A stretch of 64,000 nt of DNA from Bacillales bacterium UBA7278 (GCA_002472275.1 DKRQ01000026.1:25267-89266), one strand, 5' to 3'. Counted from the first letter of the stretch, positions 1-38,743 are shown. Notes: generated by a model from the sequence alone, not told the origin. Made by a program: numbers and translations.

Positions 1-571
1 AGCCATAGTGGAGCGCGTAGGAGAAGGAATCGCTAGGGAAGGGGCGGATCGAGGTGTAATAGGGCCAGATATGGGCTTCCGGATAGATGATCACGGCCTG
101 CTGCTTCTTGAAGCGCCTTTCGAGGGCGGCGTCGAAGTTCGGCTTGGCTTTTGGATCGTTGGGTAGGGGGATGCCTCCTAATAGGGGGACGAACTTACCG
201 ATACCCGGGATGGCCGTGTTATTGGGATGGACGATCGTATTGATATAGCGATTCGCAAAGAAGGCGGGGATGACCGCGTCGCCGATATCCTGGGTGTGGT
301 TGCCATAGAGCAGAATCGCGTTATGGCGATAGCGCTTTAGCTTCCACTTACCCACGATTTCGTGGTGGAATTTGGCCTTCAAATAGATTTTGGCGATTGG
401 TTTTGCTATGCAAAAGAAAAAGAAAAACCGCTTCATCTTGCCCCAAAGGGAGGCATCGCGTATGTAGCGGTAGTCTTCCCCGATTCGGGGCGTTTCGACC
501 TTCGTGGGCGAAAACTCGTCATGCAAAAGGTCGCTGTATTCAATAGTGTCCGGCAATTGGCTTTTGGACAT
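1..571 (-). CDS. lysophospholipid (1-acyl-sn-glycerol-3-phosphate type) acyltransferase family protein; 3' end lies outside the window
   Basis: My own minus-strand translation from the ATG (complement of 569-571) reads MSKSQLPDTIEYSDLLHDEF...LLYGNHTQDIGDAV...KKQQAVIIYPEAHIWPYYTSIRPFP. It has an NH(x)nD block and a YPEA block like PlsC-type acyltransferases. The frame stays open to nt 1, so it is missing from the ORF track. Confidence 0.55.
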   Translation of the reverse strand, partial: MSKSQLPDTIEYSDLLHDEFSPTKVETPRIGEDYRYIRDASLWGKMKRFFFFFCIAKPIAKIYLKAKFHHEIVGKWKLKRYRHNAILLYGNHTQDIGDAVIPAFFANRYINTIVHPNNTAIPGIGKFVPLLGGIPLPNDPKAKPNFDAALERRFKKQQAVIIYPEAHIWPYYTSIRPFPSDSFSYALHYG

Positions 572-4660: not shown

Positions 4661-4996
4661 ATGGAGGAACAGAAAACCCTCGACCTTACCGCCCTTAAGG
4701 CCGAGCTAGACAATCAGCTCATCGAACTAAGCAAGACCGAATCCGAGAACATCCGCCTCGTGATGTCGGCCCCTTCTCTCGCCACGCAGAAATCCGCGGC
4801 GCTTCAAAACGATTTCAACAAGAAAATCGAGCAACTTAACGCCATAGCCAAGGAAAACACCGCCACGGAAGCTAGATCCATGGCGAGGTTCTCCTATGCG
4901 CTTAGCGGCTTTAACCAAACGGCCCTCTCCTTCGAAGCCTCTTTGGCGAAGGCGGTGACCGTGACTTTAGACGAGGCCAACGACGATGGAAAGTAA
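4661..4996 (+). CDS. hypothetical small helical protein, 111 aa
   Basis: AAGGAGGAG lies directly upstream. Overlaps the next ORF by 11 nt. Helical, low-complexity sequence. Confidence 0.55.
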   Translation: MEEQKTLDLTALKAELDNQLIELSKTESENIRLVMSAPSLATQKSAALQNDFNKKIEQLNAIAKENTATEARSMARFSYALSGFNQTALSFEASLAKAVTVTLDEANDDGK

Positions 4997-8048: not shown

Positions 8049-8073
8049 AGGGGTTTCCACGCCCCTTTTCATT
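8049..8073 (+). terminator. weak hairpin plus T-run between the two paralogs
   Basis: AGGGG-tttccacg-CCCCT followed by TTTCATTT. The stem is only 5 bp. Confidence 0.3.
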
Positions 8074-8090
8074 TGAAAGGAAACAAAACA

Positions 8091-19054: not shown

Positions 19055-21595
19055 ATGCAGATGAAAAAAGGCTGGATAATCTTCGCTAACGTTGCCATCG
19101 CGCTCGGCATCATGTCTTTCGTCGCGGTCTATTCGACCCTCGAAGCCAGAGCTTCCTCTAAGCTCCAGGTCGAGCACTTTGAGAGCACGACCATCACCAT
19201 GGAACGCGTGACCGAGAATTACCTCGAAGGCGAGCAGCGCATCTGCGACGTCTGGGCCCATTACATCAACAACAAGAACCTCACGATCGAGGAGGCGACC
19301 TCCTTCGTCCGCGTCTCCCACGTTCTCCCTAACGCCTCTGCCCACCTCCTCTATGCCGACACGCTTACCGGGTTATCCACGAGGCCTAGGGTCGATGACC
19401 CGACCGATTTCACCGTCACTTACAAGGGCATGGATTTCCTTAGCGACACGAGTTGGATTGACCCGATTGGCAAGTCGATCAACATCTCTCACGCATACAC
19501 GAATCCCTTAAACGGCGAGGATTCCATCGCCTTCTGCAACTTCATCAACGTCCGTGACGGGACTGCCTCAAAAAGCGCCCTCTTGCTCCGCGTCATGCCC
19601 GTGGCCGAACTCACGAGAACATGGGTTTTCCCTCAGGAGGAGTTCCAAGCCGCCGAACTTTCCATCATCGACCACAACGGCAACTACATCGTCAGGGGCA
19701 ATTCCTACCAAAACTCGAATTTCTTTGAATTCTATCGTTCCTATAACAAAATCGACCCCACCGAGGCGACGGCCTTCTTCGCCAAAATCACCTCCACCAC
19801 GGGCTCTTTCAACATGAACGATTCCTCTGGTAAGGAATGTATCCTTGCACACACGCCATTTGATGTGGCGGGTGGGTGGACGCTGCTAAACATGTTGCCG
19901 ACGACCTATCTAAAGGCGAGTTCCCAAAACTGGCTTCTCATCGGGGTCGTTTCCGCGGGTCTATTCGTCTTGTTCGTCTTTGACATGATCTTCATGATGT
20001 ACTTCAACAAGAAGCTGCAACTCGCCGCCAAGGAAGCCGAATCCGCCAACAAGGCCAAGACCGATTTCCTCTCCACCATGTCGCACGACATCCGAACCCC
20101 GATGAACGCGATCATCGGCCTCACGACCGTCGCGGAGCAAAACCTCGAAGACACGAAATCGGTCAAAGAGTGCCTCCGTAAGGTGTCTCTGGCGAGCAAT
20201 CACCTATTGACCCTCATCAACGACATCCTCGATATCTCCAAGGTCGAAAGCGGCAAGTTGACCCTTTCCCCGCAGACCTTCTCCATCGTCGAGACGGTGG
20301 ATAACCTCATGAATCTCTCGCAGCCGATGGTCAAGGAGAAGAACCTCGACTTCGCTTTCCGCATCAGCGGCATGGACAAGGAATACCTCTATGCCGACCA
20401 ACTCCGCCTCAACCAGATCTACATCAACCTCCTTTCCAACGCGATCAAATACACCGAGCCCGGCGGCTCCGTGAGCGTGGACATGAAGGAAGAGCCTAGC
20501 CAGAAGCCTGGGTGCGTGAAGCTGACTTACATCGTTTCCGACACGGGCATTGGCATGTCGCCCGAATTCATGGAGACCATGCTTTACCAGCCCTTCTCCC
20601 GCCAAACCGATAGCCGCGTCAATAGCATTCAAGGCACGGGCTTAGGACTTACGATCACCAAGAAAATGGTCGACCTCATGGAAGGCACCATCGATTGCCA
20701 AAGCGAGCTAGGCAAGGGCACGACCTTCACCGTGTCTCTTGATATCCCCCTCGCCGAGCAGCAGCCTTCCGAAATGAAGCTTGAGTCGATGGACGTTTTG
20801 ATCGCTGATGACGACGAAATCCTATTGAAAACCGCCTCTGAAACGCTTGAGTCCCTTGGGCCCCGTGTTGAAATAGCTCGTAATGGCATCGACGCCATCG
20901 AGATGATCAAGAAACGTCACCAGGAAGGGAAAGACTATCGCGTTGTGATCGTCGATTTGAAGATGCCCGACCTCGATGGCGTGGAGACGATCCGCCGCAT
21001 CCGAAAGGAAGTGGATTCGGCTTTGCCGATCCTTCTCATTTCCTCTTACGATTGGTCCGATGTGGAAAAAGAAGCCAAGGACGCGGGGGTCAACGGATTC
21101 CTTAGCAAACCCTTGTTCCGCTCCACCCTCTATCAAAAAATCAACGAGATCATTGGGAATAACGTCTCCGTGGCGGAAGCCGAAAGCGACTATTCCGATT
21201 TGCAGGGTCTAAACATCCTCATCGCTGAGGATAACGACATCAACTGGGAAATCATCTCCACCCTTCTTGATTCCTATGGAATCTCGACCGAACGTGCCGA
21301 AAACGGCCGCGTCGCCCTCGAAAAGATCAAGGAGGCGGAGAAAGGCAAATACCTGCTCGTTTTCATGGATATCCAGATGCCGGAGATGAACGGTCTCGAT
21401 GCGACCAGGGCCATTCGCGCCCTAGACGACCCTTGGGCCTCTACCATCCCCATCGTCGCCATGACGGCCGACGCGTTCTCGGAAAACATCACCGAGTGCC
21501 TCGAAGCCGGCATGAACGGCCATATCGCCAAACCCATCGACATCAAGCTCGTCATCAAGGAGATCCGCAGAATAAAAGAGGAATCCAAACGATAA
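19055..21595 (+). CDS. hybrid sensor histidine kinase (periplasmic-type sensor, HisKA, HATPase, two receiver domains)
   Basis: H-box [19 protein letters not shown]-box [11 protein letters not shown]-boxes DTGIGM and GTGLGL. REC1 has [12 protein letters not shown] and REC2 has [12 protein letters not shown]. Two TM segments flank a roughly 270-aa N-terminal domain. Confidence 0.9.
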
Positions 21596-21684
21596 AAAAC
21601 TACTTTGCTAGTAGGGGAGAGAAGACCGTCGAGGAAGCCCTCGCCAAATACGGAACCTTCGCCCGATAGCTCTTCTTGCTAGAT

Positions 21685-21715
21685 GAAGCCACTTGGAAAC
21701 AGGTGGCTTTTCCCT
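21685..21715 (+). terminator. possible terminator after the kinase gene
   Basis: 7-bp stem AAGCCAC/GTGGCTT followed by a weak T/C tract. Confidence 0.35.
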
Positions 21716-21726
21716 TCCCCTTAGCC

Positions 21727-21756
21727 TTGGAAAAAATGACAAAGACTTTATAAAAT
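21727..21756 (+). promoter_or_regulatory. promoter TTGGAA-18-TAAAAT upstream of the REC-EAL gene
   Basis: Hexamers read directly. AAGGAA SD at 21765-21770. Confidence 0.45.
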
Positions 21757-21774
21757 AAACAACCAAGGAATTCG

Positions 21775-23496
21775 ATGGCTATGAACAAAGGGATTTCCAA
21801 TTCTTCAAAAGGCATCTTCCGCATCAAGAAGACCGTCCTCATCGTCGACGATGAAGAGATCAACGTCGAGATCCTTTCCTCCATCCTCGAAGACGATTTC
21901 CACATCCTCAAGGCTTACGACGGCAAGGAAGCGCTGGATATCCTCATTTCGGGCGAGCAGAAAATCGATTTGGTCCTTCTGGACGTCTTCATGCCCTTTG
22001 ATGGGCGTGAGGTGTTGAAGGTCAGGAACGCGAATCCGAGTTTGAAGCGCATCCCCTTCATCGTCTGCACTAGCGACAAGAACATCGAGGAGGAGTGCTT
22101 CCGCCTTGGCGTCAACGACTTCATCAAGAAGCCCTATGAAAACCCCGACATCATCGTGGCCAGGGCCAAGAGGATGATCGAACTCTACGAGGATAGGTCC
22201 ATCCTCAAGGAAGTCGAAAGGGACAAACTCACCAATCTATATAACGTCGAATTCTTCAAAAAGTACGCCAAGCAATACGACGCGAACTTCCCCGATGTCC
22301 AAAAGGACATGCTTTTGGTTTCCCCCAATAGGCTCAGGCTCATCAACGAGCTCTATGGCAGGGACTACGGCGACAAGATCCTCCTTGCCATCGCCGCAGA
22401 ACTAAGCGAATTCGTCTCCGAATGCGGGGGCCTAGTCGGAAGAAACGGGGGAGGCAGTTCCTTCTTCCTCTATTGCGCCCATCATGAGGATTATGCCTCT
22501 CTTCTTAGCAAACTTAAGGAGGCGGCCAAGAAAGCGGTGGGGAGCGCCAATGTTTCCTTCCGTATCGCCGTCTATCCCTTCGTCGATCCATCTCTAGATA
22601 AGGAAATCGTCTTGGGCAGGACCAGGGCCACCGCGGATTCCCTAGGCGAGGACTACGCTAAGGAAATCGCCATTTATAGCCAGGAGAACCAAGAGAAGAC
22701 CCTCCACAAGGAAAAACTCATCGAGGCGTTCCCCGCGGCGCTTGAAAACGGGGAATTCAAACTCTTCTTCCAGCCTAAATACAACATCGTCGGGGATAAT
22801 CCCGTCCTTTCTAGCGCCGAGGTTTTGATCCGTTGGATCAGTCCCGAATTCGGTTTCGTATCCCCCGGGGATTTTATCCCCCTTTTCGAAGAAAACGGGC
22901 TCATCGGAAAACTCGACGCCTATATCTTCGAAAAGGCGGCAGGGTATATGCGTTGCTGGAAGGAAAGATACGGCTTCTACCTTCCTTTGTCGCTCAACCT
23001 CTCTAGAGTCGACATCTACCGTCCTAACCTCGTCGAGGAAATCATCGGCTACGTCGATTCTAATGGCATCCCTAGGGACAAATACTACGTTGAAATCACC
23101 GAGTCGGCCTTCGTCCTAGACGCGGGCGAGGTCATCCCCGTCATCCAAAAGATCCGCGACGCGGGCTTCAAAATCGAGATCGATGATTTCGGCAGCGGTT
23201 ATTCCTCCTTCGGCGCTTTGGCGGATCTTCCCTTCGACGTGCTCAAGATCGACATGGCCTTCATCCGCGCGATGGATAAGAACCCCAAGGTGAAGGACAT
23301 CATTAAGATGATCATCCAACTCGGCAAGACCCTCGACGCGGTCATCGTGACGGAAGGGGTGGAGACCATGGAACAATATCTCTTCCTAAAGGAAAGCGGA
23401 TGCGACGTCATCCAGGGCTACTATTTCTCCAAGCCCTTGCCTTTAGGCGAATTCGAGGAAAAGATCCAAAAGGAGTTTGTCGAACATGGACGTTAA
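21775..23496 (+). CDS. response regulator with a degenerate GGDEF domain and an intact-looking EAL (c-di-GMP phosphodiesterase) domain
   Basis: REC domain LVLLDVFMPFDG. GGDEF position reads GGSSF. EAL blocks: EVLIRW, LNLS, EITE, DDFGSGYSS, KIDMAF, EGVET, QGYYF. Confidence 0.85.
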   Translation: MAMNKGISNSSKGIFRIKKTVLIVDDEEINVEILSSILEDDFHILKAYDGKEALDILISGEQKIDLVLLDVFMPFDGREVLKVRNANPSLKRIPFIVCTSDKNIEEECFRLGVNDFIKKPYENPDIIVARAKRMIELYEDRSILKEVERDKLTNLYNVEFFKKYAKQYDANFPDVQKDMLLVSPNRLRLINELYGRDYGDKILLAIAAELSEFVSECGGLVGRNGGGSSFFLYCAHHEDYASLLSKLKEAAKKAVGSANVSFRIAVYPFVDPSLDKEIVLGRTRATADSLGEDYAKEIAIYSQENQEKTLHKEKLIEAFPAALENGEFKLFFQPKYNIVGDNPVLSSAEVLIRWISPEFGFVSPGDFIPLFEENGLIGKLDAYIFEKAAGYMRCWKERYGFYLPLSLNLSRVDIYRPNLVEEIIGYVDSNGIPRDKYYVEITESAFVLDAGEVIPVIQKIRDAGFKIEIDDFGSGYSSFGALADLPFDVLKIDMAFIRAMDKNPKVKDIIKMIIQLGKTLDAVIVTEGVETMEQYLFLKESGCDVIQGYYFSKPLPLGEFEEKIQKEFVEHGR

Positions 23497-27988: not shown

Positions 27989-28064
27989 GGCTAAATTATT
28001 CCTTCCTTTTTAGCAAAAAGAAAGGAGGGGACGTGGTTTTGTGGGATATGCTATAGTGGTGCCT

Positions 28065-28499
28065 ATGGAAAAGAACCTGCTCGCGATCGATTTGGGAAAA
28101 GGGTCCGTCGGACTCGCGATTTCCCGTTCGGGCATGTTCGTGACCCCTCTTCCCGAAGCCCGTTTCGAAGCGGGCCATTACGAGGCTGCGATCCTCGCCA
28201 TCAAGAAGACGATGGAGGAGGAAAAGGTCGAGACATTCGTCATTGGCTACCCTCTTTTCCCATCGGGGGATCCCTGCGAGATGACCCCGATCGTCGAACG
28301 CTTCATCAAGATGCTTAACGATTCCTTCCCCTCGATTCCCGTCAAAAAGCAAGACGAGAGGAATAGCACGGTCGAGGCCGCTTCCTTGATGCATGAAGGC
28401 GGAAAGAAAGCCAAGAAGCAAAGGAAGAACATCGATTCCGCCGCCGCGGCGGTCATCTTAAGCCGTTATCTGAAATCCATCGGTCAGGACGCCGATTAG
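28065..28499 (+). CDS. ruvX: Holliday junction resolvase-like nuclease RuvX/YqgF
   Basis: LLAIDLGKGSVGLAIS N-terminus, roughly 144 aa. The ATG at 28065 is 7 nt after TGcTATAGT. Confidence 0.8.
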   Translation: MEKNLLAIDLGKGSVGLAISRSGMFVTPLPEARFEAGHYEAAILAIKKTMEEEKVETFVIGYPLFPSGDPCEMTPIVERFIKMLNDSFPSIPVKKQDERNSTVEAASLMHEGGKKAKKQRKNIDSAAAAVILSRYLKSIGQDAD

Positions 28500-31400
28500 G
28501 GTTTGGCGTACCAACCAGCATTCGTATACGCGGAGTTCGCGCTGGTTTTTCCCCACGCCCCGTTCCATAAGCCTTCGGCCGAGCCGACGAGGTCTTCGTA
28601 GTAATAGTAGGTGTTCGTCACGGTGATGGTATGGAACCAAGACCATTCCTCTTCCTCAACCTGGACGCTATTAGCGCGGTAGATGGAAGCGCCATTGGCC
28701 TTGTTCCAGGCATTGTAATAGGTGCCGTCGCTGACGTTTTGGATGCTGAAGTCGAGGGAGGCGACGATGTTGAGGATGGCGATCGAGATGGTCGTGCCGC
28801 CGGTGAGGCGATAGAGGGTGTTCTTGGAATAGGTTTTGTTGGCCTCGTCCGTATAAGTGACCTTCTTGCCCTCGATATTGGCGGTCAAGGTGCCCAAAAG
28901 GCTCGTGTGCGCCAAGGCGCCTAACCCGATGTCGAGCTTCCATTTGGGCGCGTTCAAAGAGGAGTTGGTGACCGAGACGCCTTCGACGATGTCCTCGCCG
29001 TGGAATGCCTGACCCGCACTGGAAGTCGCGCCATCGAGGTTATCGGTGACGATGGAACCGAGGTTGAGGATATATTTCGCAAGCCAATCGACCATGTTCG
29101 CGCCGAAATCCTTGCCCGTTACCTTCCTGTGGTCGACGTTAGGCGTATCCTTGCTGCGGTTGTTATAGGGGTTGATGCCCGTCAAACGGGTGAGATAGAG
29201 GGTGCCGGAGGTATCGCTGCCGTCGGTCTCGTAGAAGATGTTCGTCATCGTGTCCTCTGGGATGACCTTGACGAGGCCAGCCAGCGCGGTGGTCTTCGGC
29301 GAGAAGACGCGCCCGATGATCTTGAGGTTGGTGCCCGACATCAAAAGGTAGATGTCGAGGGTGATGTGGACGTCTTTGACGGTCCACTTGCTGCCGAGTT
29401 TGATCTCGAGGGTGACGCTGCCATGGATATGGTAGGTGGTGTCGGACCTTAGGTCGGTCGCGCCAAGGGTGATGGTATCAAGGGCGAATTGGAGCAAGGT
29501 CTTCAAAGAGGAATAGTCGACGAAGCCGCTGCTATGGCTAGCGAAGACAAAGGGGAAGCTATCGAAGGAAGTGGAGCCGAGGGTGATCTTGGCGTAGACG
29601 TCCGTATTGGTCTCCCCTTCTAGGGTGAGCCACACCTCGATCGTGGAGGGTTTGCCGTCGTTAAGGTAACCGATTTTGATGGTGAGTCCGGTGGTCGGCT
29701 GGAGGAATCCAGGTGCGATTTCGAAAGTGGTGGAATTGTCCAAAATCTCCGCAGAAGTGATCAATTTTGTGGCCAAAAGCTCGAAATATTGGCCGGAAAG
29801 AAGCTTCATGAGCAACGTCTCCGCGGTGATCGACGAGATGAGGTTCGTGATCCTTTTGAAACGGGGGTCGGTCGAATCGGTGAGCTGCCTGATGACGTCG
29901 ATGACGCCGTTAAGGGAGTGGACGGAGAAAGAACCCTTCAAGGGGTTATTGCTCGGCTCGGAACGGTTTTCGGCGTTATAGGTGGAACTGTCGCCGCTTT
30001 TGGTGACCGTGGTGTTCTTCGAGTTGTATTCGAAGTACATCGCGTTGTGGTTGCCGCTGCCCTTCATGTCGTTTTCGTCGCTATCGTCTTCGCCCGCCTC
30101 GCCGGTTACGTCGATCTTGAGGCTATGGTCGTTGACGTAATTCTCCTTGAGGTCGAGGAAGGTCATTTGGCCCGTGCCGAGTTTGTTCTTCAAATCGAAG
30201 GCGAGGGAGCCATGGAACGCCATGCCCTGTTCCTTCCTGCCGACTTTGGCGACGGGATCGTAGACGTAGGCGTTCGCGGTTTTGGTGGAAACCTTGGACA
30301 CGGTCCCTTCCTTAAGCGCATAGCCATCGAGTTGCACCTGGAGCTGGTCGCGTTCGGCGATCGCGTCGATTTCCTCGGTCCAGTGGGGGAGGTGGGTCAT
30401 CGTGATGTAGCCGGAACGGTCGAATTCGGGCTGCTCGTAATGCCTTAGGTCAAGGTGCCCGGAAAGATGGAAGGCGGTCTCGGTGGAGTTGGAGCCGGTG
30501 ATGCCGACGTTATCTAGGCTCAAGGAGGCGAGGGCGATGTTGCCGCCACGTCCATCGAGGACGATGGTCGCATACCCATCCATCGAAGCGAAGGAAAGGT
30601 CGAGTTTGGCGATAAGCTTGTTATCTTCCGCCTTAAGCTCGCAGATCGTGGAGACGATGTCCTCGTAATGGGATTCGGAGATGTCGCGGTAGATGCTCGA
30701 GCTCTTGATGACCTCGATCGCATTGGCGATGGCCTCGATCGTGGAAAGGACGCTTTGGATGAGCTTTATGATGAGCTCGTTTTGGATGGTCGGATCCGAC
30801 AACGCGTCGATCAAAGAAGCCAAAAGGGCCGACACCACGTCGACCGGGGTATGAACCTTCAAGATGTCATTGAGGTTCAAATAGGCGTTCACCAAGGAGC
30901 CGTCCTCGGCTTCCTCGGCTTCCTTTTCGATGCGAAGCCTCAAATCCTGGCTCGTGGAGCCGGAGGCGAAGTTTAGCCTCGCGTCCACCTCGCCAAAGAG
31001 GGAGGAGGAGAAGTCGCAGTCGGCGGCGACGCCGATCGTGGCCTCCTCATAGACCGCTTCCTTCTCGAACTGGGTGTCGCTTCCTTCGACCGCGGCCTCG
31101 CTATGGGTGAGGGTAAAGGAGCCGTCCAACCCGAAGGATTTCGTGTTCGCCATCGAGGCGATTTCGCGGTAAAGGTCGAGCGAATCCTCGATTTCGATGT
31201 AGGAGGCTTCGGGTAGGGGGAGGTTCCAATCCAAATCGCCTTCCTGAGAACTGATCGAGGCGACGATCTTTAGCTCCACGTTGTCGTTAACCGCGAAACG
31301 GGAAGACGAATCGGCGGGGAAGGAGATGCCACTGAGGTTATTATGGCCATCCGCGTGGATGCCGATTGGGAAGATATCCTCGCCGATCGGGAGGTCCCAG

Positions 31401-32092
31401 CGGTAATCAAGGCCGTTGAGGCATTCGATGCTATTGACCGAATCCAAAACGGAATCCCAATCGATTTCAGTCTTGGAGACATCGGTCTCCTTGCCTAGGG
31501 AAATTGCGTTGATCCCAAGGGTGGACAAAATCACGGAGAGGAAGTGATCGAGCTGGCCGTATTCGAAATAGGAGACGCCGCCGGTCCTCGAATCGATGCC
31601 TTCCCCGTCGTCGAAAGAGGAAAGGGAGGCTTTGTAGTTCACGTCGTAATCGACCCCGGCGGTGCCGCCATCGCCAAGGGAGACATAAAGGGCGTCGTTT
31701 TGTAGATTTAGCGAAAGGGAACGCGAAACCCCGTTATAGGAAAGGGGGGCGTTAAGGGCGAAAGACAAAGAATGAAGCGAAAGCCCATCCACCTTGAATT
31801 GGCCATGGGAACCGCTAAGGTCGAACACGTTATCGACCTTGCCTTCCTCCTTTGCGGGAATCGCGATTTCAAGGGCGTCGAAATCGAGGCGGAGTCCGCC
31901 GCGGATGCCCTCGAGGAGTTGTTCCTTGATGGGGGTTCTGTTGGTCGGCTTCTCGTCGAGAGGGACGTAAGAGGAAGTGGATTCCTCCTCCTTTTTCCCT
32001 TCGGCGTGAACAGGGGCGAAGGAGCACGAGAAAAGCAGGCTCAATAGAGCTCCGGTCAACATCGATTTCCTGAAAGCGCTGTTCTTTTTCAT
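28496..32092 (-). CDS. 1198-aa acidic surface lipoprotein of unknown family (paralog of 32935..36900)
   Basis: Uninterrupted ORF. Signal peptide MKKNSAFRKSMLTGALLSLLFSC carries a lipobox-like LFSC. Collinear similarity to the 1321-aa protein. No motif recognised. Confidence 0.8.
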   Translation of the reverse strand: MKKNSAFRKSMLTGALLSLLFSCSFAPVHAEGKKEEESTSSYVPLDEKPTNRTPIKEQLLEGIRGGLRLDFDALEIAIPAKEEGKVDNVFDLSGSHGQFKVDGLSLHSLSFALNAPLSYNGVSRSLSLNLQNDALYVSLGDGGTAGVDYDVNYKASLSSFDDGEGIDSRTGGVSYFEYGQLDHFLSVILSTLGINAISLGKETDVSKTEIDWDSVLDSVNSIECLNGLDYRWDLPIGEDIFPIGIHADGHNNLSGISFPADSSSRFAVNDNVELKIVASISSQEGDLDWNLPLPEASYIEIEDSLDLYREIASMANTKSFGLDGSFTLTHSEAAVEGSDTQFEKEAVYEEATIGVAADCDFSSSLFGEVDARLNFASGSTSQDLRLRIEKEAEEAEDGSLVNAYLNLNDILKVHTPVDVVSALLASLIDALSDPTIQNELIIKLIQSVLSTIEAIANAIEVIKSSSIYRDISESHYEDIVSTICELKAEDNKLIAKLDLSFASMDGYATIVLDGRGGNIALASLSLDNVGITGSNSTETAFHLSGHLDLRHYEQPEFDRSGYITMTHLPHWTEEIDAIAERDQLQVQLDGYALKEGTVSKVSTKTANAYVYDPVAKVGRKEQGMAFHGSLAFDLKNKLGTGQMTFLDLKENYVNDHSLKIDVTGEAGEDDSDENDMKGSGNHNAMYFEYNSKNTTVTKSGDSSTYNAENRSEPSNNPLKGSFSVHSLNGVIDVIRQLTDSTDPRFKRITNLISSITAETLLMKLLSGQYFELLATKLITSAEILDNSTTFEIAPGFLQPTTGLTIKIGYLNDGKPSTIEVWLTLEGETNTDVYAKITLGSTSFDSFPFVFASHSSGFVDYSSLKTLLQFALDTITLGATDLRSDTTYHIHGSVTLEIKLGSKWTVKDVHITLDIYLLMSGTNLKIIGRVFSPKTTALAGLVKVIPEDTMTNIFYETDGSDTSGTLYLTRLTGINPYNNRSKDTPNVDHRKVTGKDFGANMVDWLAKYILNLGSIVTDNLDGATSSAGQAFHGEDIVEGVSVTNSSLNAPKWKLDIGLGALAHTSLLGTLTANIEGKKVTYTDEANKTYSKNTLYRLTGGTTISIAILNIVASLDFSIQNVSDGTYYNAWNKANGASIYRANSVQVEEEEWSWFHTITVTNTYYYYEDLVGSAEGLWNGAWGKTSANSAYTNAGWYAKP

Positions 32093-32118
32093 CGTGTGTG
32101 CATACCCGTAAAGGGCTA

Positions 32119-32133
32119 CTGCATTATATGCAG
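32119..32133 (-). promoter_or_regulatory. 15-bp palindrome CTGCAT-ATA-ATGCAG containing a perfect TATAAT, 30 nt upstream of the 1198-aa gene
   Basis: Read directly on the minus strand. TATAAT is the complement of 32123-32128. Confidence 0.35.
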
Positions 32134-32168
32134 TACAACCAAAAGGCCGCTTTCCAAAGTGGGGAAAC

Positions 32169-32198
32169 CATTCTCCGATTCGTAGAATCGAAGAAAAA
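32169..32198 (-). promoter_or_regulatory. shared promoter/operator module, copy 1: TTTTTC-17-GAGAAT containing the 20-mer ATTCTACGAATCGGAGAATG
   Basis: The 20-mer at 32169-32188 is identical to 37954-37973. It has an internal palindrome, GATTC-TAC-GAATC. Confidence 0.6.
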
Positions 32199-32217
32199 AC
32201 CCTCTTGTTATCGAGGG
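32194..32217 (-). terminator. terminator of the XRE-TM gene
   Basis: Minus strand reads CCCTC-gataacaa-GAGGG-TTTTTT. The stop codon lies in the loop. Confidence 0.5.
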
Positions 32218-32864
32218 AATTTCTTCTTGGGTTTTAGGTTCATTCCTAGCATCAGGATCAGAATGACCTGGATGGGGATGCCGACCACGAGGATGTACCA
32301 GATGTTCTCGCTTGGGTCGTTCCAATATTGGAACTGAATCGCGAAGGATATGAGGATCGTCCATATGAAGCAGGAGGCGATGGATACGTTAGCGATCTTG
32401 TTGTGCCAGAAGTGGCGCACCTCGAAGAAGACTAGTAGCAGGGTGACGGGCACCATCCACACAAAGAGAACCCACAGCGATTTGCGGTTTTGCTCGGGCG
32501 CGGGATTATGGGCGAAGGGGCTATAGTAGCCAGAGAAGAAGACGCAGATGACGACGAGCAGGACGAAGGCCACGGTCATCGCGATGATGAGGCCGCGGTT
32601 GACATTCTTTTGCCTCGTCCCTTTGCTAGCGACGGTCTCTAGGTCCTCTTGCTTTTGCTCGGCCACGAGGTAATCGATGCTGACCCCATAGAACTCGGCG
32701 AAGTCCTTAAGGACGTCGACGCCGGGGACGGAATAGCCAAGCTCCCATTTGGAGATGGATTTGTCCGAATAGTTGATCTTCTCGGCGAGGTCCTGCTGGG
32801 TGAGCCCGCGCGCTTTGCGAAGGCTCGCGAGGTTCTTACCGACGATTTCCGCTAGGTTTTCCAT
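32208..32864 (-). CDS. membrane-bound XRE-family regulator (N-terminal HTH plus 4 TM helices; BcrR-like architecture)
   Basis: HTH segment RGLTQQDLAEKINYSDKSISKWELG, then 4 hydrophobic helices. The ATG at 32864 is 6 nt after CATAAT. Confidence 0.8.
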   Translation of the reverse strand: MENLAEIVGKNLASLRKARGLTQQDLAEKINYSDKSISKWELGYSVPGVDVLKDFAEFYGVSIDYLVAEQKQEDLETVASKGTRQKNVNRGLIIAMTVAFVLLVVICVFFSGYYSPFAHNPAPEQNRKSLWVLFVWMVPVTLLLVFFEVRHFWHNKIANVSIASCFIWTILISFAIQFQYWNDPSENIWYILVVGIPIQVILILMLGMNLKPKKKFPR

Positions 32865-32896
32865 GAGGCTATTATGCGCTTTTCGCAAATCGGGCA

Positions 32897-32927
32897 AAAG
32901 AAAAAGACACCCGCTTGCGCGAGTGCC
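32897..32927 (-). terminator. rho-independent terminator after the 1321-aa gene
   Basis: Minus strand reads CACTCGC-gcaa-GCGGGTG (one G-U pair) followed by TCTTTTTCTTTT. Confidence 0.6.
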
Positions 32928-32934
32928 TTTGGTT

Positions 32935-35900
32935 TTAGAGGTAGAGGCAGCCGACCGGACCCTCGTAGGCGAGGGAGTAGTACATCATCTGCCTGACGAA
33001 CTGCTGTTGCTGCACTTCCTCGTTGACCTTGACGTTTAGGGTCTCAACCTTCCAGTCGACGAAGTAGTTGGTAGCATCCGCGGCGGTCTGGTTGACGGAG
33101 GCGTTGCTAGAACGGGTCGCATCGTAGAGGGCGCCTTTGGCGGATTGTCCGATCACACCGGAATCGTCGACGTCGCCGACGAAGTTCGCCGCGTATTCGG
33201 GCGCATCGAGCCAGACGTTCTTCATAACGCCGCCATCGATGTTGTTGAGGGCGAGCCTTACCTTGGCGGAGGCGACGTTCATCGTGTTGGTGACCGCTCC
33301 TTCGGAGTCATGGCCGACCAAGCCGATCTTAAGTCCCGCCTCAAGGGAGGTGAGGGTCTTGAAGGAGGTGGAGTTGCCATGGCCATCGTCCTGGGTGACC
33401 TTTTCGCCGGAGATGCTCACGCCGACCTCGCCTAGCGGGGAGATGCCAAGGAGTTCGCCTAGGTTCATCGTGATGTCCCAGACGGGGGCGTTGGAGTTGC
33501 CATTATAGGCGTAGTGGAGGCAAGCGTCGTCGAAATGGATGGCCTTGGTAGCGGTAGAGGAAGAAGAGCTTGCCGCCGGGGTTTCGGATTCCTCGAAGAA
33601 TTCGTCGAGGACGCCTAGTCCATACTGGACGAGGTAGCCTAGCGGGTTGGCGTTCATCTGCTTTCCGGTGAAGCGCATCGCGTCGTAGACGTTGCGGACT
33701 TTGCCGTAGGAGGAGTCGCGGGTGATGAGGTATTCGCCGGTCGGGTCGATGCCGTTGGCGTAGTAATAGATGTCGGTATCACGGACGCCTTCGGCTTCGC
33801 TCGGACGGAAATAGGCGCTGCTATCGGGCGCGTTCACGCCGCGGATGACGGGGATGTCATGGAGGCGGGCGTAGGCTTTGGTCTCGGCCCCTTCGACGGA
33901 GGCGTAGGCATCGAAGCCATAGACGTCGATGTCGTAGCCGGCGATGTTGAGGGAGACGTCGCCATCGATGCCGTAGTAGGAGACGCCAGTAACCGGGGTC
34001 TCGATGGTCTTGGATGGATCTTCGGGATCCTCTTCCTCGATGAAGCGGACGCCGGAAACGGTGCCGACGGCATAGGAAGCGAGCTCGCCGATCGAGGAGA
34101 TGTCGCTAAGGGCATCCTTATCCTCGATGGAGGAAAGTTCGGTGTTCTCCTGTTTGGCTTTGATGCCGGAGACCGTGAAGTCGATGGAGTGGGCGGTTTC
34201 GTCCTCGCCGACATAGTCGATGTCGATCACAAGGCTAGAAAGTCCCTTTTCCTCGGTGCTCGTCAAGGCTTCGTCGAATTCGGCCCTGATGAGGAAGGTC
34301 GCGCCTTCGGGGAGGCCGAGTTCGCTGCCGTTGAGAGTGATCTCGATGGACTCGTTGCCGAGTTCGATCGGGTTCACGTACTTGCTGGCCTGGAGGGAGA
34401 GCAAGGAGAAGTAATTGCCGGAGGTGATGTCGGAGATGACGCCGGTGGATTCTTCCTTGGCGAGGCTAGAGATGAGCCTGCCGAAGCGATCGTCCACGTC
34501 GAAGATGCCGTTAAGGGAGGGCTTAACGAGGTCGAGCAAGGTGGAAACGCCTAGCTTCGCCCCGATGCCGTTTTGGTTCTTCGGGTTGCTGGAGTGGGGG
34601 ACGTTCGCGTCGTTGATGGAGTCGTAATGGAGGGCGACGGAATCGAGTTCGTCGTAGAGATCCATGGCGATGTTATGCTGCTGATAATAGCCTTCGCTCC
34701 TTTGGAGGAGTTTGGCGTTAACCGTGCCTTTACCTTGCTCGGAGGAGAGGTCGAAGGCCGCTTTGGCGTTGATATCAAGGCCGGTGGTCGGCTCTCCATT
34801 CGCATCGAGGACGCCGTCCTTGGTGGAGGTGACGTGGCCTTCGATGTTGGCTTCAAAGGACTTCGCGTCGACGATCGCGCCGATTTGATCCTTCAGGCCA
34901 TAGACGTGGGAGAGGGGCTTAAGGTCCTCGAAGCCCGCGGGCATCGCGATATTGGCGATTTCGGCGAGGTTAAGGCCGAGGTGGCCGCGGAGAGTGAACG
35001 ACATGAACTTGATATCGTTGAAGTCGATGCCGATCAACTGGTTGCTGGAAATGGAGAGGGTGGCTCCGCCTTCAAGCCCGATCGGGGCGAAGGTGAGCTC
35101 GACGGTGAGGCTCGAATCGCCGCCTTCGATGGTTTTGACAAAGTCAAGCGCGGAGTCGTAGACGCCTTTGCCTAGGCCTTTGACGAAGTCGGAGTCGGTG
35201 ATGGACTTGATCGCGTTGCCCAAAGAGGGGAGGAACTTGGCGATCTGATCGACCGTGTTGGCTTCCTCGGCCTGCTCGGTCTTTTCGGCGGTCACGGATT
35301 CCTCTTTGGCGAAGAGGGAGCCCATGAGCTCGTCGAGATAGAGCCTGCTGGTCTTGGCTTCGACGAGGCCGTTGAGGTTGACGTAGGCGTCATAGTCCTG
35401 GAAAGGCTCGCCGCCTTTTTCGGTCTCGGAGCCTTTGACGTATCTGGCTTGGATCCTATGGGTGGTGTTGGGGACGACTTCCCACTCGGCGCCGCCGTTA
35501 GGCTGGATCTGCGAGAGGTTCACGTCGGCGGAAACGCCTTCGAAGTCGAACTTGAAGTCCTGATGGAGTTCTTCCTTCTTGGAGAAATTCGCGGTCATAT
35601 CGGACTTGAAGTCGCCGTTAACGGCGATCCTCATGCCATCGTTGACCTCGTCTTTGGCGAGGACGGTACGGGAGCCTTCGACGCCATCTTGGTGATTCAT
35701 GAGGTCGAGGCTTAGGTCGAAGGAGGCTTCGGGCCTGGCAAAGAGGGTGGCCACGGACTCGAAGAGGGCGGCCGAGTTGCGAAGATCCTTATAGGAAGAG
35801 AGGTCGCCGGGCATGAAGGAGGCGAAGTCGACGCTTTCTTGCTCAGCGGGGACCACGAGCGGGGTGATCGAGGCAGAGGCTTTGATCCTCATGGTCGGGT

Positions 35901-36900
35901 TGCCTTGCTCGTCTTCTTTGAAGTTGAAGTAATCCTGGGTTTCGGAGAGGACCGCGGGGAAATCCACGCCCGCGAAATCATAATTATCACCTTTCGCGCG
36001 GAAACCTAAGGGCAAGGTGGTCTCGCCTAAGGGGAGATTCCAAACAAAGTAGTGGTCCCTAACTTCCTCCATGGAGGCGAGGGAATCGGTGATACCATCG
36101 AGGTCGATGCCGCCTGCTTCACTTTCTTCGGAGGAGGAGGGGCTCGCGATGGAATCCTTGACCGTGTCGATGAGGGTGCCAAAATCCAGGCCCTTGATTC
36201 CGCCGTCAGAGATGATGCCGAGCATGTCGTCGAGGAGCCAGTCCAAGTCGCCGTATTCGTAGTAGGGGACGCCGCCGGTGACCGGATCGATCGCGGTCTC
36301 GACGCCGGAGATGATGTCGGTCTTTTCCAAAGAAACCTTGTACTTGAGGTCCCATTTGTCTGCGTCGCCCGTGGAATCGAGGTTAACGAGGTTCACGTAG
36401 GCGTGCTCATCGAATAGGCCAAGGGCGACCTGCCTCTTCTTGCCGTTATATTCGACGGGGAGGTTGGCCACCATCGAGATATCGTGGATCGAAAGGCCGT
36501 TCATCGCGAACTGGACGAAGGCCCTTTCCCCGTTGGCGTAGCCGCCTTGGGCGTCGGTGATGTAGTCGCCGTTAGCGTCCTTGGCGTTAGGGGTCTTGAT
36601 GACGTTGCCCTCGATATTGCCTTCGCTATCGGCGAATTGGAATTCGAGGCCGTCGATCGTGATCTCCATGCCTTTGGTCGCGGAGTCCGCCATATTGGCG
36701 ATGAGCCTATCGCGTCCGGTCAACACGTTGTCACTAGGGACGAGGTTGGAATCGCCGCCTTTTTCGATGATGACGTGTTGGGGAAGGACGAAATAAGTAG
36801 TGGCCGCGGTGGCGCCGAAGATGCCGATGAAGGCGAGGCCGGTCAGCCATGAGGATGAACGGAGTTTCTTGCCGTCGTTATGTTTTTTGAAGAGTTTCAT
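32935..36900 (-). CDS. 1321-aa acidic surface protein with an N-terminal signal-anchor, unknown family (paralog of 28496..32092)
   Basis: Uninterrupted ORF. AGGAGGAA SD upstream. N-terminal TM segment WLTGLAFIGIFGATAATTYFVL. No motif recognised. Confidence 0.8.
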   Translation of the reverse strand: MKLFKKHNDGKKLRSSSWLTGLAFIGIFGATAATTYFVLPQHVIIEKGGDSNLVPSDNVLTGRDRLIANMADSATKGMEITIDGLEFQFADSEGNIEGNVIKTPNAKDANGDYITDAQGGYANGERAFVQFAMNGLSIHDISMVANLPVEYNGKKRQVALGLFDEHAYVNLVNLDSTGDADKWDLKYKVSLEKTDIISGVETAIDPVTGGVPYYEYGDLDWLLDDMLGIISDGGIKGLDFGTLIDTVKDSIASPSSSEESEAGGIDLDGITDSLASMEEVRDHYFVWNLPLGETTLPLGFRAKGDNYDFAGVDFPAVLSETQDYFNFKEDEQGNPTMRIKASASITPLVVPAEQESVDFASFMPGDLSSYKDLRNSAALFESVATLFARPEASFDLSLDLMNHQDGVEGSRTVLAKDEVNDGMRIAVNGDFKSDMTANFSKKEELHQDFKFDFEGVSADVNLSQIQPNGGAEWEVVPNTTHRIQARYVKGSETEKGGEPFQDYDAYVNLNGLVEAKTSRLYLDELMGSLFAKEESVTAEKTEQAEEANTVDQIAKFLPSLGNAIKSITDSDFVKGLGKGVYDSALDFVKTIEGGDSSLTVELTFAPIGLEGGATLSISSNQLIGIDFNDIKFMSFTLRGHLGLNLAEIANIAMPAGFEDLKPLSHVYGLKDQIGAIVDAKSFEANIEGHVTSTKDGVLDANGEPTTGLDINAKAAFDLSSEQGKGTVNAKLLQRSEGYYQQHNIAMDLYDELDSVALHYDSINDANVPHSSNPKNQNGIGAKLGVSTLLDLVKPSLNGIFDVDDRFGRLISSLAKEESTGVISDITSGNYFSLLSLQASKYVNPIELGNESIEITLNGSELGLPEGATFLIRAEFDEALTSTEEKGLSSLVIDIDYVGEDETAHSIDFTVSGIKAKQENTELSSIEDKDALSDISSIGELASYAVGTVSGVRFIEEEDPEDPSKTIETPVTGVSYYGIDGDVSLNIAGYDIDVYGFDAYASVEGAETKAYARLHDIPVIRGVNAPDSSAYFRPSEAEGVRDTDIYYYANGIDPTGEYLITRDSSYGKVRNVYDAMRFTGKQMNANPLGYLVQYGLGVLDEFFEESETPAASSSSSTATKAIHFDDACLHYAYNGNSNAPVWDITMNLGELLGISPLGEVGVSISGEKVTQDDGHGNSTSFKTLTSLEAGLKIGLVGHDSEGAVTNTMNVASAKVRLALNNIDGGVMKNVWLDAPEYAANFVGDVDDSGVIGQSAKGALYDATRSSNASVNQTAADATNYFVDWKVETLNVKVNEEVQQQQFVRQMMYYSLAYEGPVGCLYL

Positions 36901-36915
36901 GATGATTCCTCCTGA

Positions 36916-37869
36916 TTATTCGAGTGATTCCGGATAGGCCGGTAGTTTGCTTCCCACTTCCGGGAAGCCGAAGTCGGGTGCCCCGACGTGGAATTCGGTT
37001 ACGAGGGTTCCCTCGCAGCTTGACCCGACTCCCGCGCTCGTGGTCGCGAAGTATTTCTCGTGGCTCTTGAGCTTTCTTAGGGTCAGGTCCTTGTCCATCG
37101 TCACCGTGAGGTGGCAATAGTCGAAGGTCGGTTTGTATTTGAGGCTTGAGATGGTTTGCATCTGGCATTGGTAACGGAGCACCCCGGTTTTGGGGTTGAG
37201 CTCTGCCTCGACGACGTATTGGCCATCCACTTCCTTGATAGCCGATTCCCCATCTCCCGAGGGCGGGGTTCCGCTAAGCATGGTGGCGGGGGAGACCAGG
37301 TAGACGAGCGATTCGGCGACGTTGCGACCCATCATGGTCTTGTATTCGTCGTTGCTCATCGTCTTCTTCGTGTGGTTCTCGTAATCGTCGCGTTCGCCCC
37401 AATAGGTCGTGGTGACGTCCCCTTCGCGGAACATGCGGTCGTGGATGTTGATGAGGGAGGAGGAGGCGTTGGATTCCTCGAAGAACCTTTCCCCCATCTT
37501 GACCGAACGGGTCTGGATGCCTTGCCTGACCATCGCGGCCTGGGTGAACCCGACCCCGATGCTCCAGCAGTTCTCGCTTTGGTCGAAGCGGGCGAACGAG
37601 GCGACGATGATCTCATCCACGGTGAGGGCCTTGTCGAAGGGGGTTCCCGCCTTCTCGGCTTTGGCGGCCTTGGCTAGGACCGCTTCCACGTTAGGCGCGT
37701 AATCGTCGAGCCCCGCCACGAATTGGTAGGCGTCGGGCTTGAGCATCTGCGCGACTTGGAAGCCGGCGAACATGCCTCCGCCCATCCCGACCACCAGAAG
37801 CGTCGGCAAAAGGAAGGCGTTTGCCTGGAAGTGGCGTTTCGTTTTTGCTTTGGCGACGCTAGGTTCCAT
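36916..37869 (-). CDS. 317-aa membrane-anchored extracytoplasmic protein of unknown family; first gene of the operon
   Basis: GGAGGAAGGAA SD upstream. N-terminal TM segment AFLLPTLLVVGMGGGMFAGF. The stop is 15 nt upstream of the 1321-aa gene. Confidence 0.7.
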   Translation of the reverse strand: MEPSVAKAKTKRHFQANAFLLPTLLVVGMGGGMFAGFQVAQMLKPDAYQFVAGLDDYAPNVEAVLAKAAKAEKAGTPFDKALTVDEIIVASFARFDQSENCWSIGVGFTQAAMVRQGIQTRSVKMGERFFEESNASSSLINIHDRMFREGDVTTTYWGERDDYENHTKKTMSNDEYKTMMGRNVAESLVYLVSPATMLSGTPPSGDGESAIKEVDGQYVVEAELNPKTGVLRYQCQMQTISSLKYKPTFDYCHLTVTMDKDLTLRKLKSHEKYFATTSAGVGSSCEGTLVTEFHVGAPDFGFPEVGSKLPAYPESLE

Positions 37870-37953: not shown

Positions 37954-37983
37954 CATTCTCCGATTCGTAGAATTGCCGATAAA
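37954..37983 (-). promoter_or_regulatory. shared promoter/operator module, copy 2: TTTATC-17-GAGAAT containing the 20-mer ATTCTACGAATCGGAGAATG
   Basis: Identical 20-mer to 32169-32188, with a similar T-rich -35 at the same spacing. Confidence 0.6.
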
Positions 37984-38060
37984 ATGGGCAAAAATACCGG
38001 GGCTCATTGCTTTTTTATGCGTAAATGACTTGTCAATATATCATTCGATTCATCCATGGC

Positions 38061-38135
38061 AAATTTTCATTGAAATTTTCATGGATTTTCATTTTCGATT
38101 GAATTTCCTCGATGGAATCAAATGAATTTCATATG
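38061..38135. repeat. A/T-rich phased direct repeats (ATTTTCAT x3, TGAATTTC x2) in a divergent intergenic region
   Basis: ATTTTCAT occurs at 38063, 38075 and 38085. TGAATTTC occurs at 38100 and 38123. Confidence 0.6.
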
Positions 38136-38254: not shown

Positions 38255-38743
38255 GTGTACGCGAAAGACTCTTATGTGTTTCACACCCATTGCGGTGTCT
38301 GCCAAGTCGTCGACGTGGCGCCTCTTTCCGGCGACCCTTCCGGCAGTCTTTATTATGTCCTCCGACCCCTCTATGGAGACGATGGCAGCAACATCGTCCG
38401 CGTCCCCTTCGATAACCCCGCTTCGCTAAGAAGGCCCCTCGACAAAGCCCTCGCCGAGGAGCTCATCGAGAACTGGCCCGACGTGAAAACCGACCTCTAT
38501 ATCTCCGATTCGAAAAAGAGGAAGCTCTCCTATGAGACCGCGCTTCGCTCGGGCATGGTGGAGGATCTCGCCGTGCTCCTAGAAGGGGCGATGCAAAGGA
38601 AGGCCAGGGATGGCCACCTCAACTCGATGGACGCCCAATTCGTCAATAGGGCCGCCCCGATCGTCTATGGGGAATTAGGGTTCGCCCTAGGCATGTCCGT
38701 GGAGGACACCAAGGCCTACGTAGCAAGCAGGACGGGACGTTAA
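38255..38743 (+). CDS. CarD/CdnL/TRCF-domain family transcriptional regulator
   Basis: N-terminus YVFHTHCGVCQVVDV...YYVLRPLYGDD...VRVPFDN resembles the CarD_CdnL_TRCF RNAP-interaction domain. GTG start with a strong SD. Confidence 0.7.
   Translation: MYAKDSYVFHTHCGVCQVVDVAPLSGDPSGSLYYVLRPLYGDDGSNIVRVPFDNPASLRRPLDKALAEELIENWPDVKTDLYISDSKKRKLSYETALRSGMVEDLAVLLEGAMQRKARDGHLNSMDAQFVNRAAPIVYGELGFALGMSVEDTKAYVASRTGR

Follow-up and report, generated by a model that had tools for sequence, protein, structure and literature searches.

What does a bacterial cell do with two giant surface proteins that are encoded together with a small membrane-anchored partner and a regulator of their own? The question is raised by a 64,000-nucleotide (nt) stretch of DNA from Bacillales bacterium UBA7278 (GCA_002472275.1 DKRQ01000026.1:25267-89266; hereafter the window, with positions counted from its first letter), in which an original prediction made from the sequence had proposed an undescribed, regulated surface apparatus built from three minus-strand open reading frames (ORFs). 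We call the products giant A, giant B and p317; together with the gene of an XRE-family regulator lying between the giants, their genes form a cassette (Table 1). Our analysis shows this cassette to be a module of four genes, ancient and fixed in the chromosome of uncultured Bacilli from gut and rumen, that is carried by the order RFN20 and related low-GC lineages, and establishes it as conserved, co-regulated, extracytoplasmic and membrane-tethered, with three of its proteins exported to the outer face of a single membrane. The proposed apparatus withstood both a search for a characterised family to which the giants might belong and a survey of gene order in relatives.

All three ORFs have exactly the coordinates originally given, and every peptide cited for them was found in the translations. 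They are real genes and not chance ORFs, since a word-indexed search returned 3, 20 and 22 database relatives and an exhaustive hidden Markov model (HMM) search 221 clusters. The export signals were also as predicted. Giant A begins with a basic stretch followed by LLSLLFSC (the protein starts MKKNSAFRKSMLTGALLSLLFSC), which fits the lipobox rule and is retained in most A-type orthologues; in giant B, the transmembrane (TM) anchor WLTGLAFIGIFGATAATTYFVL comes after a basic N-terminus, and this anchor, together with an F(F/L)xxPQ motif, is present in all B-type orthologues; p317 carries an N-terminal TM segment, which forms the stretch of low predicted local distance difference test (pLDDT) values at residues 1-48 of its structural model. 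Full-length paralogy of the giants, initially judged by eye, was borne out by BLASTP, which aligned residues 35-1129 of giant A with residues 46-1230 of giant B at 24% identity (E=7e-50), and both proteins are acidic and Cys-poor as described (pI 4.63 and 4.35; 4 and 2 Cys; G+S+T+N 29-32%).

Scans of the three exported proteins against Pfam, NCBIfam, PHROGs and PADLOC gave no matches, no Pfam or NCBIfam model covering the giants or p317, and PDB sequence and profile searches were empty for the giants and for p317. The claim that none of the three can be assigned to a known family therefore holds for both giants, whereas p317 proved assignable at the level of fold class (LolA/LprG-like, see below). 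A Pfam scan of 30 distant giants revealed nothing recurrent and no known adhesin, Ig-like, lectin, repeat or SLH domain, and the only name on record for family members is 'hypothetical protein'. The exhaustive HMM search, run with a profile from a trimmed member set over 1.84 billion cluster representatives, placed 221 clusters in the giant family at E<=1e-3 and 196 at E<=1e-10. Second-tier giants are ~970-1450 aa (amino acids) long, look low-GC and likewise possess an N-terminal anchor or lipobox, and a profile built from this second tier alone matches both window giants (1e-102 and 1e-91). A metagenome scan with the distant giants gave no confirmed matches.

The two central blocks of giant A, R1 and R2, are homologous to each other (hhalign probability 96.9%, E 2e-10, 195 columns), and longer members of the family (1400-4042 aa) keep one N-domain and one C-domain and multiply the central block. 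These results give the family a layout of anchor, conserved N-domain, length-tunable repeat region and C-domain. Conservation of the giants is highest at residues 101-250, including a DPxTGGxxxYEYGDLDWL motif that AlphaFold modelled at low confidence; from this combination of high conservation and low-confidence modelling, we infer a typical partner-binding segment. Identity among orthologues is ~30% for the giants, ~50% for p317 and 63-71% for the flanking PepF; the giants evolve fast, and p317 is the best-conserved component of the cassette. The longest member, a 4042-aa lipoprotein giant of a distant locus (L039), combines a multiplied central block with eight CBM5/12 modules, and a Lipase_3 gene lies 14 nt downstream of it.

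Giant A yielded a weak AlphaFold2 model (19 sequences; pLDDT 61.6, predicted TM-score (pTM) 0.43), in which blocks of 5-7 long strands alternate with helices. Foldseek against the PDB placed TbpB at the top, along with outer-membrane barrels and ApoB100, at TM-scores<=0.15, and the top 50 matches contained no AsmA/TamB, VPS13, ATG2, S-layer, adhesin or P116 structure; against BFVD nothing usable was returned. We rejected the TbpB and outer-membrane barrel matches, since a model of such low confidence gives a generic beta-meander signal. Across Pfam, NCBIfam, PHROGs, PADLOC, PDB and Foldseek, no confident HMM or structure match thus tied the giants to a characterised family.

The small partner was modelled confidently (AlphaFold2, 17 sequences; pLDDT 86.5, pTM 0.80), as two N-terminal helices followed by 11 antiparallel strands with two inserted helices. 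DSSP assigned the 11 strands to residues 100-295 and helices to 61-97, 173-180 and 231-240. Foldseek against the PDB matched the model to LprG, the ApoB100 beta-barrel, LolB, the ependymin-type EPD-BCP1, SAOUHSC_02783 and lipovitellin (probability 0.75-1.0), all of which are open-barrel lipid binders. We take this likeness to LolA/LprG as a resemblance of fold class and not one of membership. There are 22 homologues of p317 at ~50% identity. Residues invariant across all lineages are G107, I118, F130-E131-E132-S133, R145, G158, Y176, G181, Y190 and Y233, and further Q236-M237, L243, P247, F249, E271, Y273, A275, G282 and P303; this invariance indicates a specific binding or catalytic site. A p317-like protein also occurs as a free-standing lipoprotein (L034; 288 aa, with a lipobox), which has no giant nearby and adjoins FeoAB genes, so the p317 domain appears to have a function of its own. 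The idea that p317 is a detached module of the giants was rejected (hhalign probability 0.1%).

We surveyed the genomic context of the family by using the giant alignment to scan a single genome for each GTDB species, which returned 30 loci. All 30 lie in metagenome-assembled genomes recovered from the rumen, from chickens and from other guts, under the labels Ca. Enteromonas, Ca. Alloenteromonas, 'Bacilli bacterium' or 'uncultured Erysipelotrichaceae'. When the window proteins were compared with these loci by tblastn, every sufficiently long locus showed the order p317, TM giant, second giant, with the XRE-TM gene either between the giants, as in the window, or after the second giant; orthologues of the regulator lie inside or beside every RFN20 cassette. 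Conservation across RFN20 extends to the flanks: upstream lies a divergent CarD-like gene, downstream RuvX, patatin and PepF. Inheritance of the module is vertical, and it is not mobile.

Contig look-ups for the second-tier giants added five loci with p317 and giant (31-44% GC) and a sixth, L039 (GC 40%), with the giant alone. L036 carries a p317 homologue (359 aa), a TM giant, a lipobox giant and an extra 498-aa lipoprotein, with no XRE gene called; L037 has a p317 homologue, two giants and a 474-aa lipoprotein, preceded by a divergent XRE-4TM gene; L038 consists of XRE-4TM, p317 homologue and one 1447-aa giant; L040 of p317 homologue, lipobox giant and TM giant, with the XRE gene 3.4 kb away; and L041 of XRE-4TM, p317 homologue and one giant. 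The XRE-4TM gene is therefore adjacent or a few kb off in four of the five, and the small proteins, always directly upstream of a giant, match the p317 profile at 1e-47 to 1e-75. The presence of p317, giant(s) and XRE-TM in these distant loci makes their association an ancient one. The split between TM and lipobox giants is retained in L036 and L040; the duplication that produced it predates the separation of the lineages. Taken together, synteny of the trio that had been put forward was found conserved in ~30 GTDB species representatives and in the five distant low-GC loci. The lipoproteins of 474-498 aa that follow the second giant in L036 and L037 have no Pfam match; they may represent a fourth structural component, which is not in the window cassette.

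The prediction had also credited the system with its own regulator. The ORF between the giants matches Pfam HTH_3 (1.5e-16) as well as HTH_19 and HTH_31, and inspection of its translation revealed four C-terminal hydrophobic helices of ~20 residues each. The regulators of L037 and L038 are 36% identical to it over the full length, membrane domain included, and those of L040 and L041 show the HTH and four TM segments by inspection. The case for regulation was strengthened further by a shared and phylogenetically conserved palindromic candidate operator. Two identical 20-nt copies of this element lie upstream of p317 and of giant A, where 0.02 matches would be expected by chance, and contain the palindrome TTCT(A/C)C-N5-G(G/T)AGAA. 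Across 716 kb of related loci plus the window, the palindrome occurs 32 times, compared with 1.45 in shuffles; 21 of these 32 occurrences precede the called start of p317 by 50-120 nt, or that of giant A where XRE splits the giants, and one or two more fit if misplaced ORF starts are allowed. Other loci with XRE between the giants have an equivalent site upstream of giant A, and loci in which giant A directly follows giant B have a single palindrome, upstream of p317. In L036, L037, L038 and L040, diverged palindromes that keep the half-sites precede the p317 homologue by ~85-96 nt, and L041 has a related site, TTCTCA-N5-TGAGAG, upstream of its p317 homologue. From sequence, the obvious binder of this palindrome would be the cassette's own XRE-4TM protein.

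A strong terminator-like hairpin follows giant B and a further one the XRE gene, which suggests three transcription units in the window (p317-giant B, XRE and giant A); the gap between the p317 stop codon and the giant B start is 15 nt. The first and last of these units appear to have one candidate operator in common. The perfect -10 hexamer predicted for giant A is embedded in a perfect palindrome, TACTGCAT-ATA-ATGCAGTA, which may act as a repressor site or fold as a hairpin in the 5' RNA. Given the position of this hexamer, operator copy 2 would be centred ~60 nt upstream of the inferred transcription start of giant A, a putative activator-like position near -60. No clear Shine-Dalgarno sequence precedes giant A. 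Upstream of p317, a scan with the sigma-70 consensus gave matches not above shuffle expectation, and the promoter match listed there is tentative. The region between p317 and the CarD-like gene also holds three of the five window copies of ATTTTCAT, in helix-phased spacing, which may mark the site of a second regulator or serve as an UP-like element.

Table 1 Features of the cassette, its surroundings in the window and related loci (window coordinates unless a locus or residues are named)
Feature	Position	Strand	Details
p317	36916..37869	-	317 aa, first gene of cassette
Giant B	32935..36900	-	1321 aa
XRE-family HTH regulator	32208..32864	-	between both giants
Giant A	28496..32092	-	1198 aa
Giant A N-domain	residues ~53-294		
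Giant A R1	residues 295-572		
Giant A R2	residues 573-865		
Giant A C-domain	residues 866-1198		
Candidate operator copy 1	37954..37973	-	ATTCTACGAATCGGAGAATG, 85-104 nt upstream of p317 ATG
Candidate operator copy 2	32169..32188	-	ATTCTACGAATCGGAGAATG, 77-96 nt upstream of giant A ATG
Terminator-like hairpin	32903..32930	-	12-bp stem and T-run, directly 3' of giant B
Terminator-like hairpin	32200..32217	-	3' of XRE gene
Giant A predicted promoter region	32117..32135	-	perfect -10 TATAAT at 32123..32128, read from sequence
Sigma-70-like promoter match, tentative	38035..38062	-	TTGCCA-16-TATATT, divergent intergenic region upstream of p317
ATTTTCAT cluster	38063-38092		three copies, spaced 12 and 10 nt
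CarD_TRCF_RID-like gene	38255-38743	+	162 aa, divergent from p317
RuvX (YqgF-like) gene	28041-28499	+	converges on giant A
Rejected ORF	27996..28421	-	141 aa, downstream of giant A
DUF1508 protein gene	8073-9716	+	547 aa
ORF with no Pfam match	4986-6890	+	634 aa
Histidine kinase and receiver-GGDEF-EAL genes	19055-23496	+	
p317-like free-standing lipoprotein	L034 10001-10867		288 aa
Lipoprotein giant	L039 8001-21597		4042 aa
Lipoprotein after second giant	L036 13183-14679		498 aa
Lipoprotein after second giant	L037 14357-15781		474 aa
PAP2, GT2 and PlsC-type genes	L041 9577-12371		directly downstream of single giant, same strand

The window is otherwise an ordinary stretch of chromosome, of uniform GC (~0.50-0.58), that encodes an AddAB-type helicase/nuclease, a Clp ATPase, F-ATPase, glycerol kinase, PepF, a patatin-like phospholipase and tRNAs, as well as two-component and cyclic di-GMP (c-di-GMP) proteins. 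The RuvX ORF ends in a 4-nt overlap with the stop codon of giant A, and a minus-strand ORF downstream of giant A was dismissed as a spurious shadow of this convergent gene. The CarD_TRCF_RID-like gene occupies the equivalent position in most RFN20 loci and is also found near the 4042-aa giant-family member in L039. Elsewhere in the window lie a protein with a DUF1508 domain as its sole match, an ORF with no Pfam match, and two genes that form a c-di-GMP signalling pair within this reduced genome, the first for a hybrid histidine kinase that bears two receiver domains and the next for a receiver-GGDEF-EAL protein.

Whether the host has a cell wall bears on any function proposed for the module. 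Ca. Enteromonas corresponds to GTDB genus UBA733 in the order RFN20, family CAG-826, with genomes of ~1.2 Mb and ~57% GC (PMC8035907), and CAG-826 is predicted to be peptidoglycan-deficient (PMC10868615). The wall-less host originally raised as a condition is therefore plausible for this lineage, but the cassette is not strictly tied to wall-lessness: EzrA is encoded nearby in L036 and L040, and teichoic-acid-type genes in L038, so that some carriers are probably walled and the cassette is not strictly a wall substitute.

We propose that the membrane-embedded regulator would bind the palindrome through its HTH domain (candidate operator TTCTACGAATCGGAGAA) and would turn the module on upon a membrane-sensed signal, as BcrR-type regulators do. 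p317 and the membrane-proximal N-domains of both giants would then form a heteromeric complex from which the giants project outward as elongated scaffolds. Such a complex could capture or handle a hydrophobic, lipid-type ligand at the cell surface, the LolA/LprG-like p317 acting as the ligand-binding element beside the membrane, and might serve the scavenging or delivery of membrane lipids for a reduced-genome, probably wall-less cell. We hold handling of a lipid-type ligand to be a tentative assignment, somewhat short of an even chance; it is favoured because of the fold class and autonomous lipoprotein form of p317, the membrane-embedded sensor, the adjacency of lipid genes and the precedent of P116, a large membrane-anchored surface protein that extracts lipids in the wall-less, lipid-dependent Mycoplasma pneumoniae (PMC10023570). 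The adjacent lipid genes comprise a patatin phospholipase beside the cassette in the window and eight RFN20 loci, the Lipase_3 gene that follows the 4042-aa member of L039, and LPG_synthase_TM and GT4 near the family member of L038. In L041, a PAP2 phosphatase, a GT2 glycosyltransferase and a PlsC-type acyltransferase were observed directly downstream of the single giant.

Several observations weigh against this assignment. Despite Foldseek probabilities of 0.98-1.0 to LprG, LolB, the ApoB100 barrel and EPD-BCP1, p317 superposes poorly on them (TM-scores 0.3-0.5, root-mean-square deviation (rmsd) 7-8 Å), and Pfam found no LolA, LolB, LppX_LprAFG or related family at E<=1 in p317 and 17 homologues. 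The invariant polar set of p317 (FEES, R145, Y233, Q236, E271 and Y273) would be expected of an enzyme or of a specific receptor more than of a generic lipid carrier. The occurrence of lipid-metabolism genes beside family members in four lineages is a post hoc observation. The weak giant A model matched no lipid-transfer fold (AsmA/TamB, VPS13, P116 or TULIP), and the eight CBM5/12 modules of one giant-family member would point to polysaccharide binding, not to lipid.

The giants could instead form a structural or protective surface coat, an abundant layer or spacer around a cell with little or no wall, for which p317 would be a membrane-proximal assembly or anchoring factor and which the regulator would tune to envelope stress. 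Many S-layer proteins are acidic, Cys-poor and beta-rich, as the giants are, and a coat would also accommodate the conservation of their membrane-proximal N-terminal region next to an otherwise fast-evolving protein, the variation of their length by added central blocks, and the standing of the module as a core, single-copy, syntenic one in a lineage predicted to be without peptidoglycan (PMC10868615, PMC8035907). However, a dedicated sensor-regulator with its operator argues for conditional and not for constitutively high expression, giant A has no clear Shine-Dalgarno sequence, relatives with EzrA or teichoic-acid-type genes nearby are probably walled, Pfam revealed neither SLH nor any other domain known for lattice formation or anchoring, and the polar motif and free-standing lipoprotein form of p317 suggest a ligand-directed function; we consider a coat rather unlikely. 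An adhesin complex, with the giants as fibrillar stalks whose distal C-terminal domain binds host mucosa, feed particles or microbes and with p317 as a base or accessory subunit, would fit the succession of membrane anchor, variable-copy repeat stalk and single C-terminal domain, the CBM5/12 modules inserted in the 4042-aa member, the faster evolution of the exposed parts relative to p317 and PepF, and the gut and rumen habitats of the source genomes. Typical mollicute adhesin families show phase variation and paralogue expansion, whereas this module displays strict single-copy synteny with neither feature; no known adhesin, Ig-like, lectin or repeat domain was found in at least 30 members, and strictly paired TM and lipoprotein paralogues coupled to a small partner look more like a machine. 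Adhesion is, on this evidence, an unlikely role.

A mobile-element, phage-derived or defence/toxin-delivery system is suggested by generic PADLOC matches of the regulator HTH to XRE-type defence components, and by the frequency with which giant proteins with an XRE neighbour are found in islands. The three exported proteins, however, have no PHROG or PADLOC matches, the BFVD search returned nothing usable, and the cassette sits between constant chromosomal flanks at uniform GC with no integrase or transposase nearby; because housekeeping synteny is conserved, such an origin is effectively refuted, and we regard it as extremely improbable. A more specific form of lipid handling would make the module a lipid-scavenging conduit of monoderms, independent of AsmA/VPS13 and of P116, in which the giants are a length-tunable hydrophobic track to a host, prey or particle surface, p317 loads or unloads lipid at the membrane end and XRE senses the lipid state of the membrane. 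This is a speculative proposal, and we think it quite improbable.

Taken singly, the parts of the module are familiar in kind: the regulator is a transmembrane XRE protein, p317 is LolA-like in fold class, and the giants are anchored surface proteins of great size. The giant family and the four-gene combination are undescribed. In gut and rumen communities, RFN20 and related bacteria are common and as yet uncultured, with genomes of ~1.2 Mb, of which the cassette takes up nearly 1%, and it is kept in every member examined and in distant lineages. A surface machine so conserved and self-regulated is likely to be central to building or feeding the cell envelope. It offers defined, testable parts, namely a confidently modelled p317 with a polar motif, a 17-bp candidate operator and a membrane-bound regulator, and an alignment of more than 200 giant-family clusters should permit good domain-level structure prediction. 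Were lipid handling true, the module would bear on how wall-less, lipid-dependent bacteria outside Mycoplasma obtain their membrane lipids; were the conduit true, bulk lipid transfer would have been solved a third time, by unrelated proteins, and the module would be a key to the life of reduced-genome gut Bacilli.

Each component can be set beside a known system. The literature searched yielded no relevant report of LolA-like proteins in Mollicutes or of AsmA-like proteins in monoderms. With LolA, LolB and LprG (LppX_LprAFG), p317 shares, in its model, the fold class of an 11-strand antiparallel open barrel with helices, and like LolB and LprG it is extracytoplasmic and membrane-tethered, some of its homologues being lipoproteins. 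It differs from them in lacking sequence or HMM similarity, in its larger domain (~250 aa), in an invariant polar motif set that these carriers do not have, and in its genetic coupling to giants in place of a Lol ABC transporter or MFS pump. TbpB, like giant A, is a surface lipoprotein of successive beta-barrel/handle-like antiparallel modules and was matched by Foldseek at E 2e-6 and probability 0.98, but TM-scores of 0.08/0.14, an rmsd of 29-33 Å and 8% identity make this match unusable as evidence of relationship, and TbpB belongs to diderm Slam-dependent systems. From S-layer proteins the giants are set apart by having no SLH or other S-layer domain in Pfam.

AsmA-like/RBG proteins (TamB, YhdP and VPS13) resemble giant B in an N-terminal TM anchor followed by ~1000+ residues of beta-rich repeats, and both giants in a best-conserved N-terminal region, a length set by repeats and predicted blocks of 5-7 strands followed by helices, a periodicity compatible with a continuous beta-taco groove of hydrophobic lining, though not diagnostic of one. 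Yet AsmA, AsmA_2, DUF490 (TamB) and Chorein_N HMMs matched neither the window giants (E<=1) nor 30 distant members (Pfam, E<=0.1), the hosts are monoderm Bacilli with no second membrane of their own, and one giant paralogue is lipid-anchored. P116 offers an analogy of function, that of lipid scavenging: it is a large (~1000 aa) membrane-anchored surface protein with internal module duplication in a wall-less, reduced-genome host, whose module mixes a five-stranded antiparallel sheet with amphipathic helices (PMC10023570). The giants have no sequence match to any PDB chain, and P116 falls outside the top 50 Foldseek matches. The giants are much more beta-rich than P116 and form a heterotypic pair that comes with a small partner and its own regulator. 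That regulator resembles by its architecture the BcrR-type transmembrane XRE one-component regulators (PMC10269533), with which it shares an N-terminal XRE HTH, a C-terminal membrane domain of four helices, the lack of a large extracytoplasmic domain, a gene adjoining its presumed targets and inverted repeats upstream of them; the presumed targets here are giant surface proteins in place of an ABC exporter.

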